Notes: a model not told the origin generated them from the sequence alone. A stretch of 64,000 nucleotides of DNA from Candidatus Omnitrophota bacterium (GCA_043822665.1 JBDRBM010000024.1:2056-66055), one strand, 5' to 3'. Positions 4,684 through 62,412 are shown, counted from the stretch's first letter. Translations and numbers: made by a program.

Positions 4684-4726
4684 CTTAACTTGACGATTCT
4701 TACAATGTAAGTTTCGTCAAGTTAAG
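4684..4726. repeat. Family-A 43-nt palindromic repeat, copy 2
   Basis: CTTAACTTGACGATTCTTACAATGTAAGTTTCGTCAAGTTAAG, 15 nt after the receiver gene stop. Confidence 0.9.
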
Positions 4727-7611: not shown

Positions 7612-7767
7612 TTTAACTTGATATAGTAGGAAATTCCTTTTTAACTCGTTGTAGGGGCGTCAGTTATGGCGCCCGTTGATGTGGGTCGGATGAATCCGAC
7701 CCCTACAAAGTTCGCCCGAAGGGCGTTAAATTTACGAAACTTACATTGTAATAATCGTCAAGTTAAG
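7612..7767. repeat. Composite family-A/C element (156 nt) with family-A-like termini and hairpin cargo
   Basis: Left end TTTAACTTGATATAGTAGGAAATTCCTTTTT. Internal GTAGGGG...CCCCTAC stem (7651-7706) encloses GGGTCGGAT-GAA-TCCGACCC. A CGCCC-GAA-GGGCG hairpin lies at 7713-7725. Right end ACGAAACTTACATTGTAATAATCGTCAAGTTAAG. Confidence 0.85.
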
Positions 7768-20936: not shown

Positions 20937-21020
20937 CTTGATATAGTAGGAAATTCCTTTTTGTAGGCACACATTAGTAGGGGACCCTTAAGGGTCCCCT
21001 ACTAATGTGTGCCTATTAAG
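20932..21020. repeat. Composite family-C/B element between convergent genes (includes the 51-nt palindrome 20964-21014)
   Basis: CTTAACTTGATATAGTAGGAAATTCCTTTTTG, then TAGGCACACATTAGTAGGGGACCCTTAAGGGTCCCCTACTAATGTGTGCCTA, then TTAAG. Likely a bidirectional terminator. Confidence 0.9.
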
Positions 21021-34143: not shown

Positions 34144-34156
34144 TTCTCCTCCTATG

Positions 34157-34199
34157 CTTAACTTGACGAAACTTACATTGTAAGTTTCGTCAAGTTAAG
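34157..34199. repeat. Family-A 43-nt palindromic repeat, copy 3 (perfect 21-1-21 palindrome)
   Basis: CTTAACTTGACGAAACTTACATTGTAAGTTTCGTCAAGTTAAG. It lies inside the minus-strand operon. Its right TTAA holds the stop codon of the 34195..35040 gene. Confidence 0.95.
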
Positions 34200-35040
34200 A
34201 AGAATAGGTGTTGGTAAAGTATGAGCCGAACGGATGTATATATATATTATAACCTTTTTTATCTTTATTTGCTTGCGCTGAAATATTTTTTTCAATTTCT
34301 TTCCAGAATCTATCGTAATAAAGCCTGTCTTTTGAAAGCCTTTCGTACATGTTCTTTAAGTCAGGATTTACAGATGCCACAGCTTTTATGATATCCTTGA
34401 CATTAATAACATTGAAATTGAGCCCCTCAAATTCCACAGAACCTGCTTTAGGAAATCTTGAGAATATGCCATCGGTTTTCGATATCCCGGGTAATACAGG
34501 CGAAAAATACGGGATAACGCTTATGCCCTGCTCCAGGAATTCGTTTATAACATTTATCCTTTTATCATAAGCGGGGCTTTTTGGCTCCAGCTTTTGCTTC
34601 AAGGCAGGTTCAATGTCATTTATCGTGAAATATATCTTTTTGCAGAACCCTTTTTTTAATAAGTCAGTGTATTCCCGGATATAGGTAGAGCGTGTCAGTA
34701 TGGTATAGTATATCCCGTAGCGGTTCAGGATATCCAGGATTTTTTTTGTAATCTTGTATTGTTCCTCAGCGCCCTGGAAACATTCAGTAGTAGATCCAAG
34801 GAGAACGCAACGCGGTTTTTTCAGGAGTATTTCTTTTTCCAGGAGCTTTGGCGCGTTTACCCTGATATCCACATAAGTCCCCCATGCCGCTTTCTTCTTG
34901 CTTATGACTTTATTAGACCTTACATAGCAATAAAGACAGGAGTATTCGCACCCCATGAAAGGATTTATTACGTATTCCCCTAGGTCGATAGAAGTAGGGT
35001 TGAGTATCCTGGATATCTTTACTGTGTTAAATTCTGTCAT
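34195..35040 (-). CDS. Radical SAM protein, COG1533 (DNA-photolyase/SplB-like) family
   Basis: NPFMGCEYSCLYCYVRSN (CxxxCxxC). 281 aa. Confidence 0.65.
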   Translation of the reverse strand: MTEFNTVKISRILNPTSIDLGEYVINPFMGCEYSCLYCYVRSNKVISKKKAAWGTYVDIRVNAPKLLEKEILLKKPRCVLLGSTTECFQGAEEQYKITKKILDILNRYGIYYTILTRSTYIREYTDLLKKGFCKKIYFTINDIEPALKQKLEPKSPAYDKRINVINEFLEQGISVIPYFSPVLPGISKTDGIFSRFPKAGSVEFEGLNFNVINVKDIIKAVASVNPDLKNMYERLSKDRLYYDRFWKEIEKNISAQANKDKKGYNIYIHPFGSYFTNTYSS

Positions 35041-37077: not shown

Positions 37078-38514
37078 TTATAGCGCGGTCTCTTCTTCGT
37101 TATTTATCCAGAAGGCCTTGAAATTATTTTCGTTAATTATTTTTAAGATTACCCTTACCATATCCTGGTCATACTTTGGCCCGGCATTATCTTTCAATTC
37201 CTGCACAGCTTTTTTTATACCCAAGGCAGCCCTGTAAGGCCTGTGGAATGTCATGGCTTCGAGTACGTCGGCTATGGCGAGTATTCTTGCCTCGGGGATG
37301 ATTTTTTCACCTACGAGGCCGCGGGGATAACCTTTGCCGTCAAGTCTTTCGTGATGTTGGTATATAGTTTCTGGCAGGGGAAAAGGAAAAGAGTGATGTT
37401 TTAGCATGTCGTAGCATTTTTTGACATGCTCCTGTATAAGTTTGAACTCTAGCTCAGAAAGCGTTCCGGGTTTATTCAGTATCTCAAGGGGTATCAGTAT
37501 TTTTCCTATATCATGAAGCTCGGCCGACATCTTGAGCGCCAATATCTTATTTTCATCCCACCCTATTTCCTGAGCCATTTTTTCCGCTATTATAGATACG
37601 CGCCGTGTATGGCCAAAGGTGTAAGGGTCTCTTATCTCAAGAATCCTATCGAGCACCTTTAAGGAGTTCATAACCATATCAAGGCGATTTCTCTCCATCT
37701 GGTCATAGGCAGTTATGTCCCTTGTTATGCCCATCGTGCCTATTATCTCCCCGCGTTTATTCTTTATAGGTATCTTTGTGGTGGTGACGCAGTTATAGGT
37801 GCCGTTAGGAAGGAGCGTGCGCTCTATCTTTCCTATAATTGGATTTCCTGTTATCAGTATATACGTATCGTCATCGAACATCTTCTGGGCTTGTTCTCTC
37901 GGAAAGAAGTGGAAATCGGTCTTACCGGTTATTTCCTCAGGCTTCATCTTAAAACCATCCGCGTAGAACTTGTTTACCCTTACAAGCCTGTTTTCTTTAT
38001 CTTTGAAGTAAACCGCGTCAGGCAGATTATCCAGTAGATTCTGAAAGAGCTCTTGTTCAAGCGCGAATTTTTCTTCCAGTTCTTTATGTCTTGTAATATC
38101 TTCAAGCATGCCTTCTATATACAGACGCTTGCGGGGATTAAAAGGTTCTACCAAAGATGCTGTAATTGCCACACAGGCCTCTTTGTCATCCTTTGTCTTG
38201 AAGAGTGTTTCATAAAACCTGACTGTTTTTTCCTTTTTGAGAAGCTTGAAAAATTCTACCCCTTTCGCAGGGTCTTTGAAGAGGGATTTGAATTTTAGCT
38301 TATGTATTTCTTTTTCAGATGTATAACCCAGTATATTGGCAATGGCGGGATTGACAGCCAGAAATTTTTCATTAGGAGACAATTGGTACCTGAAAAGGCA
38401 TATACCAAGCCTGTTAGCCGCGGAGAACTCCAAATAAAACTTATCTTTTGTTTTGGCTTTTTTAGTTTTCATATTATAATATATATTAACATACAAGAAA
38501 CGGAAAAGAAACAA
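37078..38514 (-). CDS. PAS-domain HD-GYP phosphodiesterase (cyclic-di-GMP signalling)
   Basis: Two PAS-like regions, then HDIGK and HHERLDGKGYPRGL (HD-GYP signature). Confidence 0.85.
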   Translation of the reverse strand: MFLFRFLYVNIYYNMKTKKAKTKDKFYLEFSAANRLGICLFRYQLSPNEKFLAVNPAIANILGYTSEKEIHKLKFKSLFKDPAKGVEFFKLLKKEKTVRFYETLFKTKDDKEACVAITASLVEPFNPRKRLYIEGMLEDITRHKELEEKFALEQELFQNLLDNLPDAVYFKDKENRLVRVNKFYADGFKMKPEEITGKTDFHFFPREQAQKMFDDDTYILITGNPIIGKIERTLLPNGTYNCVTTTKIPIKNKRGEIIGTMGITRDITAYDQMERNRLDMVMNSLKVLDRILEIRDPYTFGHTRRVSIIAEKMAQEIGWDENKILALKMSAELHDIGKILIPLEILNKPGTLSELEFKLIQEHVKKCYDMLKHHSFPFPLPETIYQHHERLDGKGYPRGLVGEKIIPEARILAIADVLEAMTFHRPYRAALGIKKAVQELKDNAGPKYDQDMVRVILKIINENNFKAFWINNEEETAL

Positions 38515-39192
38515 AAAAATTGAAATACCATAATAAATGAAAAGATAGATAACACTTTTTGGTCAGGACCAGTGCCTTGAGAGATTTTGCCACAACGAAC
38601 CCCATATAGTGTCCTTTTGCCCTGGTAAGGCCTACAAAAAGACGCTCGGCCTAATAGATGCAAATGACTATAAAGCATTACGTAGAGTTAGGCCTCGCTC
38701 CATTTTCTTTTGACAGGCAATGTCTGTAATGATGCGGTAATCCTGGATTACGCAAAAGAAAAAGGCTTTTCTTAAGGCCTCACCAGGGCAAAAGGACCAG
38801 CGATAAAGTGCTCAGGGCTTACTCAAGCGCTGATGTGCTGAGAGTGTAACCCGACATCGAAAATATTACAAAAAAATGTAAATACTTTATAGAAGAACGC
38901 ATTGTCTGTTTAAGCGCATGACCAACCCTGTGAGCGAATTGAAAATTTAGCCTTTTATACTGTATTTTGGCGGTTTTTAAAAGGGCGAGAACTGTCCGAG
39001 CCCCACACCTTCTGCCGAAGGCAGTTGGTGTGGGGTGAGTTTTCTCGCCCCCGACAAAATGCTGTCTAAAAGACGGCCCCATGTAAACCTGACATAGATG
39101 AGGCAAATCTTCATTTGAGCGAGCAGGGCTGGCTATGCGCTTAAGAGTGTAGCATAACCATTCAAATATTACAGGCTCGATTAACAATATAC
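38515..39192. other. ORF-free, hairpin-rich region; candidate structured ncRNA(s), unclassified
   Basis: No credible ORF on either strand. A 22-nt stem (38611-38632 with 38776-38797, one mismatch) encloses nested hairpins. A three-tier hairpin spans 38983-39050. A 10-bp long-range pairing joins 38910-38919 with 39135-39144. Confidence 0.35.
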
Positions 39193-39231
39193 TTGATTAT
39201 TGGGCGTAAACTCACTATACTGAAAACTATT

Positions 39232-39855
39232 ATGGGGGAAAAATATGATGCTATACTCTGCGACCTCGGTAATGTCCTTATTAATTTTGACCACAGGATA
39301 GCTGTCAGGAAGATCCTCGAATATACGCCTAAAAATGAAGAGGATATCTATAATCTATTTTTTGATTCGTCTTTTACAGAACTATACGAAGAAGGGAAGA
39401 TAGAGCCTGCGGGATTTTTCAGGCGGGTAAAAGACACCCTTGAGCTTGACCTGGATTACAATGAATTTTTTCTCATCTGGAACAACATATTCTTTGATAC
39501 CCCCCTTAATATAAAGATGCGCGATTTCCTAAAGAAGGCAAAATCGGTTTATAAACTTGTCATGATCTCCAATCTCAATGTCACTCATTTTGAGTTTCTT
39601 AAAAAGAAAATGCCTATATTTAAAGAATTTGACAGGCTGATTCTTTCGTATGAGATAGGCTATAGGAAGCCCGCGCCCGAGATTTACAAAGCAGCGCTCG
39701 AGTCTATTAAGACATCAAATGATAAAGTCTTTTATGTTGATGACAGGCAAGATTTAATAGATGCGGCTTCCAGGCTTGGCATAAGAGGCATAGTTTTCGA
39801 CGGAGAAAAGGCGCTTGGAGATATCCAAAAGGAACTGAGAAATGATTTTAGTTAG
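39232..39855 (+). CDS. HAD-superfamily hydrolase (subfamily IA-like)
   Basis: AILCDLGNVL (motif I variant), MISNLN (motif II), FYVDDRQDLI (motif IV). I prefer ATG 39232 to the upstream non-ATG start in the track. Confidence 0.75.
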   Translation: MGEKYDAILCDLGNVLINFDHRIAVRKILEYTPKNEEDIYNLFFDSSFTELYEEGKIEPAGFFRRVKDTLELDLDYNEFFLIWNNIFFDTPLNIKMRDFLKKAKSVYKLVMISNLNVTHFEFLKKKMPIFKEFDRLILSYEIGYRKPAPEIYKAALESIKTSNDKVFYVDDRQDLIDAASRLGIRGIVFDGEKALGDIQKELRNDFS

Positions 39856-61552: not shown

Positions 61553-62374
61553 ATGAAAGATATTAAAGCAAATATATTATCCAATAAAGAAATTGCCCCG
61601 GGATATTTTAAGATGGCCCTGGACGCGCCCTATATAGCCAAAAACGCAAAGCCCGGGCAGTTTGTCCAGGTGAGATGCAGTGATGGATTTGACCCGCTTT
61701 TAAGGCGGCCGCTTAGTATACATCGGGTATCGGGTATCGGGGATCGGGTATCGGGTATCGATATTCTATACGAGGTGATTGGCAAGGGGACAGAAGTCTT
61801 GTCTAGAAAAAAAGCCGGCGAGACCATAGATATTTTAGGTCCATTAGGCAATGGATTTACTTTATCACCATCCACCATCCACCATCCACCATCCACCATA
61901 ATAATTGCCGGCGGCATTGGAGTCGCGCCGCTAATTTTTCTTGCAGAAAAATTAGCGGAAATCCAAAATCCAAAATCCAAAATCCAAAATATAGTTCTAT
62001 TAGGCGCCAGGACAAAGAGCCTGATTTTATGCGAAAAAGATTTCAAGAAAACAGGAGCCAAAGTTTATATTGCCACTGATGATGGAAGTAAAGGATATAA
62101 GGGCTTAGTAACGAAGTTATTTGAAAAAGTTTTACGATCCACGATCCACGATCCACGATCCACGGTATGCGCATGCGGGCCGCGGCCAATGCTCGAATCT
62201 ATTGCCAGGATGTGCAATGAAAAAGGTGTAGAATGTGAGATTTTGCTCGAAGAAAAAATGGCGTGTGGTGTCGGCGCATGTCTTGGATGCGCTGTAAAGG
62301 TCAGGGATAATGGGTATAAATTAGCCTGTAAAGACGGCCCAGTATTCAAGGCAAACACCATAATATGGCCTTAA
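61553..62374 (+). CDS. pyrK: Dihydroorotate dehydrogenase (class 1B) electron-transfer subunit
   Basis: GQFVQV, RRPLSI (FAD motif), GPLGNGF, AGGIGVAPL, ACGPRPM, C-terminal CGVGACLGCAV [2Fe-2S] motif. I prefer ATG 61553. The track GTG at 61532 lies inside the palindrome. Confidence 0.9.
   Translation: MKDIKANILSNKEIAPGYFKMALDAPYIAKNAKPGQFVQVRCSDGFDPLLRRPLSIHRVSGIGDRVSGIDILYEVIGKGTEVLSRKKAGETIDILGPLGNGFTLSPSTIHHPPSTIIIAGGIGVAPLIFLAEKLAEIQNPKSKIQNIVLLGARTKSLILCEKDFKKTGAKVYIATDDGSKGYKGLVTKLFEKVLRSTIHDPRSTVCACGPRPMLESIARMCNEKGVECEILLEEKMACGVGACLGCAVKVRDNGYKLACKDGPVFKANTIIWP
61722..61760 (+). repeat. Heptanucleotide tandem array ATCGGGT x5.5 inside pyrK
   Basis: atcgggt atcgggt atcgggg atcgggt atcgggt atcg. 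It encodes ...HRVSGIGDRVSGID..., directly after RRPLSI. Confidence 0.95.
61866..61900 (+). repeat. Heptanucleotide tandem array CACCATC x5 inside pyrK
   Basis: caccatc x4 plus caccata. It encodes SPSTIHHPPSTI, between GPLGNGF and AGGIGVAPL. Confidence 0.95.
61959..61990 (+). repeat. Heptanucleotide tandem array AAATCCA x4.5 inside pyrK
   Basis: aaatcca x4 plus aaat. It encodes EIQNPKSKIQNI. Confidence 0.95.
62134..62165 (+). repeat. Heptanucleotide tandem array ACGATCC x4.5 inside pyrK
   Basis: acgatcc x4 plus acgg. It encodes LRSTIHDPRSTV, directly before CACGPRPM. Confidence 0.95.
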
Positions 62375-62412
62375 CTTGACAATTCTTACATGCCACATTT
62401 AGTCAAGTTAAG
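62370..62412. repeat. Family-A 43-nt palindromic repeat, copy 4
   Basis: CTTAACTTGACAATTCTTACATGCCACATTTAGTCAAGTTAAG. The pyrK stop TAA (62372-62374) lies in its left TTAA. Confidence 0.9.

Follow-up and report, generated by a model that had tools for sequence, protein, structure and literature searches.

Palindromic and structured sequences between bacterial genes have been described under several names. In the Proteobacteria, the BIME/REP, ERIC and Correia elements are co-transcribed with their neighbours, and their hairpins affect mRNA processing and stability. The typical REP/BIME unit is a palindrome of 20-45 bp that is repeated many times, while a MITE is present in several near-identical copies per genome and ends in conserved inverted repeats, with a duplication of the target site on either side. 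At the level of RNA, GOLLD, ROOL, OLE, HEARO and raiA are several hundred nucleotides long, organised into multiple domains, restricted to particular lineages, marked by covariation and found in variable gene contexts, and the function of each was unknown at the time of its discovery. 6S RNA, which is near-universal and single-copy, has a closing stem, an internal bubble and a terminal hairpin within about 200 nt, and is non-syntenic between lineages. Finally, in the retron msr-msd, a multi-hairpin part held in a long-range helix lies beside a long and rapidly varying hairpin.

The locus described here belongs to a bacterium of the Candidatus Omnitrophota, a phylum of widespread, uncultivated and very small bacteria, and a literature search retrieved nothing relevant on Omnitrophota non-coding RNAs. 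It lies in a stretch of 64,000 nucleotides that was analysed as a whole (hereafter the window) and consists of two modules, a three-way junction (module A) and an interrupted hairpin or "rod" (module B). Like BIME/REP, ERIC and Correia elements, the modules are non-coding, palindromic, combined in different arrangements, located in spacers and patchily distributed between relatives. Unlike them, they are present in one copy in 64 kb, are larger and include a branched three-way junction; in addition, no conserved termini or target duplication are seen, the interior is better conserved than the ends, and one loop is asymmetric. They are long, branched and single-copy in the window where REP/BIME units are short and many times repeated, and inspection revealed neither the conserved terminal inverted repeats nor the target-site duplications that distinguish a MITE.

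The modules share with GOLLD, ROOL, OLE, HEARO and raiA a total length of several hundred nucleotides, a multi-domain organisation, restriction to a lineage, covariation, variable context and a function unknown at discovery. They differ from them in having no match to a covariance model, far fewer conserved unpaired nucleotides, domains that are separable, a rod that is mostly plain duplex, and only a handful of representatives. The rod resembles 6S RNA in its size, closing stem, internal bubble, terminal hairpin and lack of synteny, but unlike 6S RNA it is absent or swapped between close relatives and undergoes decay. As in retrons, a multi-hairpin part within a long-range helix lies next to a long, rapidly varying hairpin; unlike retrons, the modules also occur apart, and there is no reverse transcriptase among those of their neighbours that were characterised with Pfam (an open reading frame downstream in one locus, L018, is cut by the contig end). 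The kind of element is therefore a familiar one, either a structured intergenic RNA or a mosaic palindromic element; its members are new, and the combination of a branched junction with an invariant core and a rod with a conserved loop, at low copy number and in portable form, is unusual.

A structured gap between divergent genes

The gap between the two start codons covers 38473-39231 (759 bp). On its left lies a minus-strand gene for a PAS-PAS-HD-GYP protein of 464 aa (37078-38472; Pfam HD_5 with E = 2.7e-42, plus PAS domains), and on its right a plus-strand gene for a HAD-family hydrolase of 207 aa (39232-39855; Pfam Hydrolase and HAD_2). A first-pass annotation had singled out 38515-39192, a span that lies inside the gap, as the longest non-coding stretch of the window and as highly self-complementary, and both statements are borne out. 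The next longest non-coding stretches measure about 510 bp (1497-2006) and 367 bp, and the fold of the whole gap has a z-score of -10.4 on the plus strand and -9.2 on the minus strand, with none of 20 dinucleotide shuffles equally stable.

The pairing of the gap is held by two separately folding modules. Module A (38611-38797) has a fold z-score of -8.7 and module B (38910-39144) one of -9.75, a stability that none of 200 shuffles equalled. The 112-nt spacer between them (38798-38909; z = -1.7) is neither structured nor conserved; in L004 and L018 it is absent or replaced, and the inter-module spacers are about 50 and 15 nt long, respectively. The stretch from module A to the HD-GYP start codon (38473-38610) is likewise unstructured (z = +1.4), and only its part 38473-38525 is shared by relatives. 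On the other side, the stretch from the rod to the HAD start codon (39145-39231) carries a promoter-like site on the plus strand.

The predicted three-way junction (module A)

Module A is predicted to fold as a three-way junction of 187 nt, an assignment that draws on the predicted fold, homologues and covariation. It is tentatively placed on the minus strand, on which its helices are read here. P1 pairs 38775-38797 with 38611-38633 and continues, past a small internal loop, by pairing 38766-38771 with 38636-38641, which gives 23 + 6 pairs. This stem had initially been seen as 22 nt long (38611-38632 with 38776-38797), and the inverted repeat of the P1 region extends to 30 nt with 87% complementarity (38611-38640 with 38768-38797). 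P2 (CCUUUUUCUUUUG / CAAAAGAAAAYGG; 38754-38765 with 38700-38711) is rich in A and U and bears two apical hairpins, one at 38734-38753, which had been recognised before, and one at 38712-38724. P3 (GC-GA-GGCC / GGCC-GA-GC; 38691-38698 with 38644-38651) contains a tandem G.A (38695-38696 / 38646-38647) and ends in a variable apical hairpin; the complementarity of GGCCTAA (38648-38654) to TTAGGCC (38688-38694) reported at first is present as well.

Four copies of module A were found: that of the window, L019:1391-1576, L018:1315-1500 and L004:7383-7542. A covariance model, R1, was built on the three-way-junction fold and scores 130-217 bits on these copies. In the R1 alignment, 94% of the cells are paired, versus 38-53% when the partners are slid. 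In 15 of the 53 pairs, 14 belonging to P1, both partners have changed, and none of 500 shuffles reaches these values; in the outer stem, 14 of the 23 pairs are doubly changed with pairing retained. The alignment is fitted to the model and thereby favours structure, but the raw pairing of the window and L019 agrees with it, with 51 of the 53 pairs being Watson-Crick and the remaining two G.U. Two weak R1 matches elsewhere in the window (20965-21014 and 34152-34204) are unrelated hairpins fitted to P1 only and were discarded.

In their minimum free energy folds, the copies of the window, L019 and L018 agree in junction layout, while in L004 the P2 arm is drawn differently. The junction sequences are nearly invariant among the four copies. 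Since P2 and P3 show no variation and covariation in the module is limited to P1, the junction fold rests on energy prediction and on the fact that in L004 another hairpin takes the place of P2a. The core hardly varies between genomes whose HD-GYP proteins are only 70% identical and whose nearby spacers have no detectable similarity, a degree of conservation that matches coding sequence. Such an invariant core amid dissimilar spacers points either to purifying selection or to recent transfer.

The rod (module B)

Module B is an interrupted hairpin of 235 nt (38910-39144), delimited by its fold z-score, inverted repeats and homologues and also tentatively assigned to the minus strand. The rod comprises about 85 base pairs and is mostly plain duplex. 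Its closing helix, reported at first as pairing 38910-38919 with 39135-39144, extends in an inverted repeat search to 21 nt (38910-38930 with 39124-39144, minus strand). Complete rods were found in the window, L004, L030, L018 and L029, and a fragment in L020. They are of two types, a window type (window, L004:7106-7330 and L030:1-125) and a second type (L018:1100-1300, L029:1745-1940 and L020:1-65).

As the rods aligned too poorly with MAFFT for pair counting, the apical hairpin (38983-39050, minus strand) was parsed by hand in the five complete rods. The three-tier hairpin that had been described at this position resolves into helices 38983-38991 / 39042-39050, at 100% complementarity, and 39001-39016 / 39020-39035. 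Read on the minus strand, it has an outer stem GGGCGAGAA / UUCUCGCCC, an inner stem CCCCACACC / GGUGUGGGG, a 5' loop AACUCA and a conserved 3' loop CUCGGACAG (38992-39000). Both rod types follow this one apical design, in which an outer stem (7-9 pairs) leads through a 5' loop (5-8 nt) into an inner stem whose length varies, and the 9-nt 3' loop NUCGRWCAG leads back to the returning strand of the outer stem. All apical stem positions are paired in all five complete rods, and of the nine outer-stem pairs, six have changed both partners between the window and L004 while none has changed just one. The loop NUCGRWCAG is also present in all five, on one arm only, which argues for a single-stranded functional form as against a symmetric DNA repeat.

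The most conserved block of the rod, UUAAAAACCGCCAAAAUACAGUAUAAAAGGCUAAAUUUUCAAUUCGCUCACA (38929-38979, minus strand), forms the 3' strand of the lower rod helices; it is 88% identical over 52 nt to L004:7266-7317 and is still recognisable in L030:89-135. Inspected by eye, the conserved strands did not fit a kink-turn, T-loop, hammerhead or -35/-10 pair. Conservation and covariation in relatives had been named beforehand as the check on a structured RNA, and both were found, at other Omnitrophota loci. Compensatory pair changes, the generic criterion for structured RNA, appear at the sequence level in P1 and the rod stems only.

Homologous loci and gene context

Orthologues of the HD-GYP protein with 70-89% identity are encoded in Candidatus Omnitrophota MAGs. 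In four of them (L001, L003, L004 and L006), the HD-GYP gene is located about 25-60 bp from a divergent pair of genes for pyruvate kinase and class II aldolase; the modules are missing from this equivalent site, which has only short spacers. Nucleotide similarity to L001, L003 and L006 ends at window positions 38511-38525, and the pyruvate kinase and class II aldolase genes are absent from the whole window. The stop in similarity together with the missing glycolytic genes indicates that the region is positioned at a rearrangement breakpoint and was not inherited at the window site. In L004, a related element of about 430 nt lies 3 kb away, between radical-SAM and DUF362/ferredoxin genes, and the window orthologues of these radical-SAM and DUF362 genes are adjacent to each other with a 51-nt spacer.

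Metagenome contigs were then scanned with an invariant 21-mer of the module A core, AAAAGAAAAYGGAGCGAGGCC. The exact scan of the collection gave two true matches, L018 and L019; a third match, L017, falls in coding sequence, is not recognised by R1 and was set aside as chance. Further loci were found through Omnitrophota orthologues of the radical-SAM gene adjacent to the module in L019. Scans of viral contigs with five conserved motifs returned nothing, or matches limited to the pattern itself.

The arrangement of the modules varies among these loci. In the window, the rod is followed by the junction in the divergent HD-GYP / HAD spacer, and the same order and direction are found in two tandem spacers, between the radical-SAM and DUF362 genes of L004 and after the HycI gene of L018. 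The junction stands alone in the divergent radical-SAM / rpmB spacer of L019, and the rod stands alone in a divergent spacer of L029 and in L030, whose contig ends inside the palindrome. In the decayed locus L020, the rod is followed by a stump, a 33-nt hairpin derived from the outer part of P1. Altogether, three spacers are divergent (window, L019 and L029), two are tandem and none is convergent, and those genes beside the modules that could be characterised encode HD-GYP, HAD, radical-SAM, DUF362 and HycI proteins, ribosomal protein L28 and an Asp/Asn-type tRNA synthetase. This distribution shows the modules to be separable and portable: they occur as a pair, one at a time or in decayed form, at different loci and synteny breakpoints, in spacers that bear a promoter or lie between cistrons.

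Comparison with known RNA families

Searches for known classes agreed with the first-pass annotation, which had found no hallmarks of RNase P, tmRNA, SRP, 6S RNA or group II introns: none of these was recovered with Rfam 15, at either gathering or permissive scores, or with ARAGORN, which detected no tRNA or tmRNA. Rfam 15 at the gathering score gave no match in the whole window, and at E <= 10 the gap yielded chance matches only, far below gathering scores. Even at this threshold, no 6S RNA match was obtained in the gap. On the homologous loci, Rfam returned miRNA-hairpin noise only. Over all these searches, the chance matches comprised a ctRNA_p42d fragment, a snoRNA and miRNA hairpins. A type I toxin-antitoxin system was also considered and rejected, as no small open reading frame is conserved across the copies.

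A modular structured RNA as the preferred reading

The gap combines structure potential, non-syntenic homologues, compensatory changes, modularity and a lack of coding capacity. The reading that we prefer, to which we give a probability of roughly one half, is that it is a new, Omnitrophota-restricted, modular and portable structured RNA locus acting at the RNA level. The first-pass annotation had suggested a large unclassified non-coding RNA. This suggestion agrees with the lack of an Rfam family, the non-syntenic conservation and the compensatory changes; that the whole forms one large domain-organised RNA is less well supported, as the modules also occur alone in L019, L029 and L030 and the spacer between them is neither structured nor conserved.

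We infer transcription, strand, partner and effect on neighbouring genes along the following lines. The modules would be transcribed along with adjacent genes, most likely leftward on the minus strand with the rod first, and would be part of, or processed from, a transcript that runs into the downstream gene. The long P1 varies freely while staying paired, and holds the near-invariant junction. The latter, together with the rod loop, would offer surfaces recognised by a conserved partner, whether protein or RNA, while the long duplexes would serve as scaffolds and as likely targets of a double-strand RNase. With such recognition surfaces and duplex scaffolds, the modules are proposed to exert their effect on RNA: they would promote the processing, stability or insulation of the neighbouring mRNA, or else give rise to a stable RNA.

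A functional single strand fits the covarying stem around a conserved junction, the asymmetric loop, the non-coding character and the non-syntenic conservation of the modules. If they are RNA, they would form a new family beyond the 4,227 curated ones, with a clear fold and probably a dedicated binding partner. The family is small: the junction is known in four copies, the rod in five complete copies and a single fragment. The bolder version of this idea, in which rod and junction would represent a genuinely new RNA class, namely a stand-alone RNP scaffold or a guide/partner RNA of an unrecognised system, with a junction and rod loop that would bind a dedicated partner and a gene that would move as a cassette between promoter-proximal sites, appears unlikely.

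Palindromic DNA repeats as an alternative

That the modules may be portable or repeat-like has to be considered seriously; the first-pass annotation did not mention it. Against the RNA reading, the modules look dispensable: they are missing at each locus in most relatives, are decaying in L020 and have been swapped between L029 and L030. Dispensability, swapping and the association with breakpoints are behaviour typical of repeats or mobile DNA. The main rival reading, conceivable although on balance unlikely, is a mosaic of intergenic palindromic DNA repeats at low copy number, of BIME-, ERIC-, Correia- or MITE-like type, spread or shuffled by recombination. The covariation would then be only apparent, a product of copying or homogenising both arms of an inverted repeat at once, and effects on RNA would be a by-product.

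Several observations are in line with this alternative, as patchy presence, decay, swapping, breakpoint association and a palindrome-rich genome all fit a dispersed repeat. The modules occupy different loci in different genomes, and the rpmB/radical-SAM spacer, which is filled in L019, is empty (60 nt) in L025-L028, L031 and L032 and holds unrelated hairpin inserts in L022/L023, L036 and L037. Relative to the radical-SAM gene, the module of L019 points one way and that of L020 the other, and different rod types lie upstream of an identical radical-SAM protein in L029 and L030. In the window and in L029 the modules coincide with breaks in synteny, and the L029 rod has a perfect outer stem of about 30 bp. 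A REP-like palindrome family of 43 bp is present in the window in five copies where none is expected by chance, and a hairpin related to this family abuts the modules in L019, L029 and L030. The wobble pairs, moreover, favour neither strand clearly. Four contigs (L020, L021, L024 and L030) end inside module palindromes; this is weak evidence, because assemblers based on De Bruijn graphs stop at a long palindrome even when it is present only once.

On the other hand, the window has one copy, no second one having been detected with blastn, R1 or the loop motif, and large collections gave very few matches. No target-site duplication or flanking direct repeat was seen by inspection at any module boundary. 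The outer stems are entirely different from copy to copy, in contrast to the interior, so that conservation is lowest at the termini and highest at the interior junction, the reverse of what characterises a transposase-recognised element. The conservation of the rod loop on one arm is likewise unexpected of a symmetric repeat. Should the modules be DNA repeats after all, they would be phylum-specific, long, branched, low-copy mosaic elements that mark rearrangement breakpoints and that have remodelled the leaders of core genes, e.g., that of the radical-SAM gene. Under either reading, model R1 and the motifs offer a handle for a phylum-wide survey.

A possible leader of the downstream gene

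An improbable, although not negligible, alternative is that the modules work as a cis-regulatory leader: in the manner of a riboswitch, or by binding a protein, they would respond to a signal and set the expression of the next gene downstream. In the four junction loci, module A ends 25-140 nt upstream of a co-directional (candidate) start with no terminator-like site after the modules in the scans, and in L004 it ends about 20 nt before the DUF362 ribosome-binding site; the invariant junction also resembles a ligand- or protein-binding pocket. However, the downstream genes are mutually unrelated (HD-GYP, DUF362/ferredoxin, L28 and radical-SAM protein), and the loci number only four to seven. 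Orientation is uninformative in the divergent spacers of the window, L019 and L029, so that only L004 and L018 count in this respect. Furthermore, there is no expression platform and no match to a riboswitch family in Rfam, rod and junction occur separately, and in L019 a promoter-like site of rpmB itself, conserved as judged by inspection, lies downstream of the module. The lack of relation among the downstream genes counts against the structured RNA reading as well.

Improbable readings: coding remnants and chromosomal sites

The first-pass annotation had also proposed a decayed element. A remnant of a decayed protein gene or insertion sequence, in which the self-complementarity would be incidental, is very improbable. 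Its attraction lies in the location of the region at a rearrangement breakpoint and in the minus-strand reading frame noted at the outset (38819-39187), which exists, encodes 122 aa from a TTG start and overlaps the rod. This frame has no Pfam match, and neither does any of the six frames of the gap, each of which contains 10-18 stop codons. No plasmid or phage similarity of the region was found, and a six-frame concatenate of module A compared with 5.8 billion proteins had no match among the best 8,000 candidates, a weak negative. The substitutions between homologues are compensatory in the stems and not codon-like, and the positions at which reading frames are interrupted vary from copy to copy. 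Least probable of all is a replication origin or another DNA-level chromosomal site between divergent gene blocks: the genes are divergent and both GC and AT skew switch sign locally near 38400, but at the 2-kb scale the skew follows the gene strand, the cumulative curve climbs to the left and right alike and dips similarly at other blocks of minus-strand genes, no DnaA box with at most one mismatch is present within 38473-39231, and relatives are without the region at the equivalent site.

Strand and promoter-like sites

The indicators of strand conflict, and the minus strand is mildly favoured for the modules. In its support, the invariant tandem G.A of P3 would become U.C / C.U on the plus strand, and the rod-to-junction direction runs with the genes in both tandem spacers (L004 and L018). 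G.U cells outnumber A.C cells by 8:4 in the module A helices and by 14:9 in the rods, which is weak support for the same strand. In favour of the plus strand, P3 gains four pairs that are kept through U-A / U.G changes on that strand only, and the junction module of L018 and four of the five complete rods fold better on it, the rod of L030 folding better on the minus strand. Strong promoter-like sites that point into the modules, with 11 of 12 matches in L019 and 10 of 12 in the window, also speak for the plus strand, in promoter and terminator scans whose site counts are close to shuffle expectation. RNAalifold gives -32.8 for the minus and -32.6 for the plus strand, equal within 0.3 kcal/mol.

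The promoter scan marks two plus-strand sites at the edges of the gap. One, TTGATT-17-TATACT (39193-39221), lies between the rod and the HAD gene. The other, TTGGCT-16-TATAAT (38453-38480), may be the former promoter of the pyruvate kinase gene. In genomes without an insert, the radical-SAM gene seems to be leaderless, judging from a promoter-like site recognised by inspection.

Synteny break beside the HD-GYP gene

At ~38526, synteny between the window and L001, a contig of a relative with an orthologous HD-GYP gene, is broken (compared with L001:2893-3912 and L001:1872-2846). In four relatives, the genes for pyruvate kinase and class II fructose-bisphosphate aldolase are divergent from the HD-GYP gene; neither is present anywhere in the 64-kb window, where HAD, DUF523, YacP-NYN, thymidylate-synthase-like, Lgt and other genes occupy their place, the DUF523 gene of this replacement block belonging to the 2-thiouracil desulfurase family. 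The HD-GYP gene contains, within its 5′ end, a promoter-like site on the plus strand (38453-38480; TTGGCT-16-TATAAT, 10/12 matches), which is directed into the non-coding region. As the relatives in which the pyruvate kinase gene starts there conserve the sequence to 38525, we infer that this site represents the former pyruvate-kinase promoter.

In another of these relatives, L006, the HD-GYP gene is followed by a short remnant of a radical-SAM gene, derived from its 3′ end (TCATACTTTACCAA; L006:5012-5136); in the window, this radical-SAM gene is intact. The persistence of this remnant beside an adjoining perfect palindrome provides evidence of a deletion in this genome.

The rpmB/radical-SAM spacer

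The spacer between rpmB and a conserved radical-SAM gene constitutes a hot spot (L019:1319-1674, L022:507-771, L025:2439-2500, L036:321-446 and L037:~300-424, all in other Omnitrophota contigs). In most Omnitrophota it spans ~60 nt and carries a -10-like element a few bases 5′ of the ATG, and therefore the corresponding mRNA is probably leaderless. Other spacers contain differing hairpin-rich inserts of 50-330 nt, all of them placed after the same ...ATGCAAGG boundary.

The contigs L029 and L030, from sister samples, encode an identical radical-SAM protein (P0003), and the same hairpin lies immediately 5′ of its gene in both, whereas their rods (L029:1745-1940 versus L030:1-125) are of two different sequence types. 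This difference would reflect cassette exchange at the strain level or, alternatively, an assembly chimera at a repeat.

Palindromes in intergenic spacers

A REP-like family of 43-bp palindromes of the form CTTAACTTGACGAAACTTACA..GTAAGTTTCGTCAAGTTAAG is represented by five copies in the 64-kb window, where none is expected by chance (1678-1720, 4684-4726, 7725-7767, 34157-34199 and 62370-62410), and all five are located in intergenic spacers. A related hairpin, ATCTTGACAC..GTGTCAAGAT, directly adjoins the folded modules in L019, L029 and L030.

Long perfect palindromes with arms of 24, 19 and 17 bp (20965-21014, 1733-1770 and 2218-2253, respectively) are also intergenic, adjoin gene ends and lack a T-run, and similar ones occur at L019:1905-1958 and L020:3186-3250. 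Such palindromes may function as terminators in this lineage.
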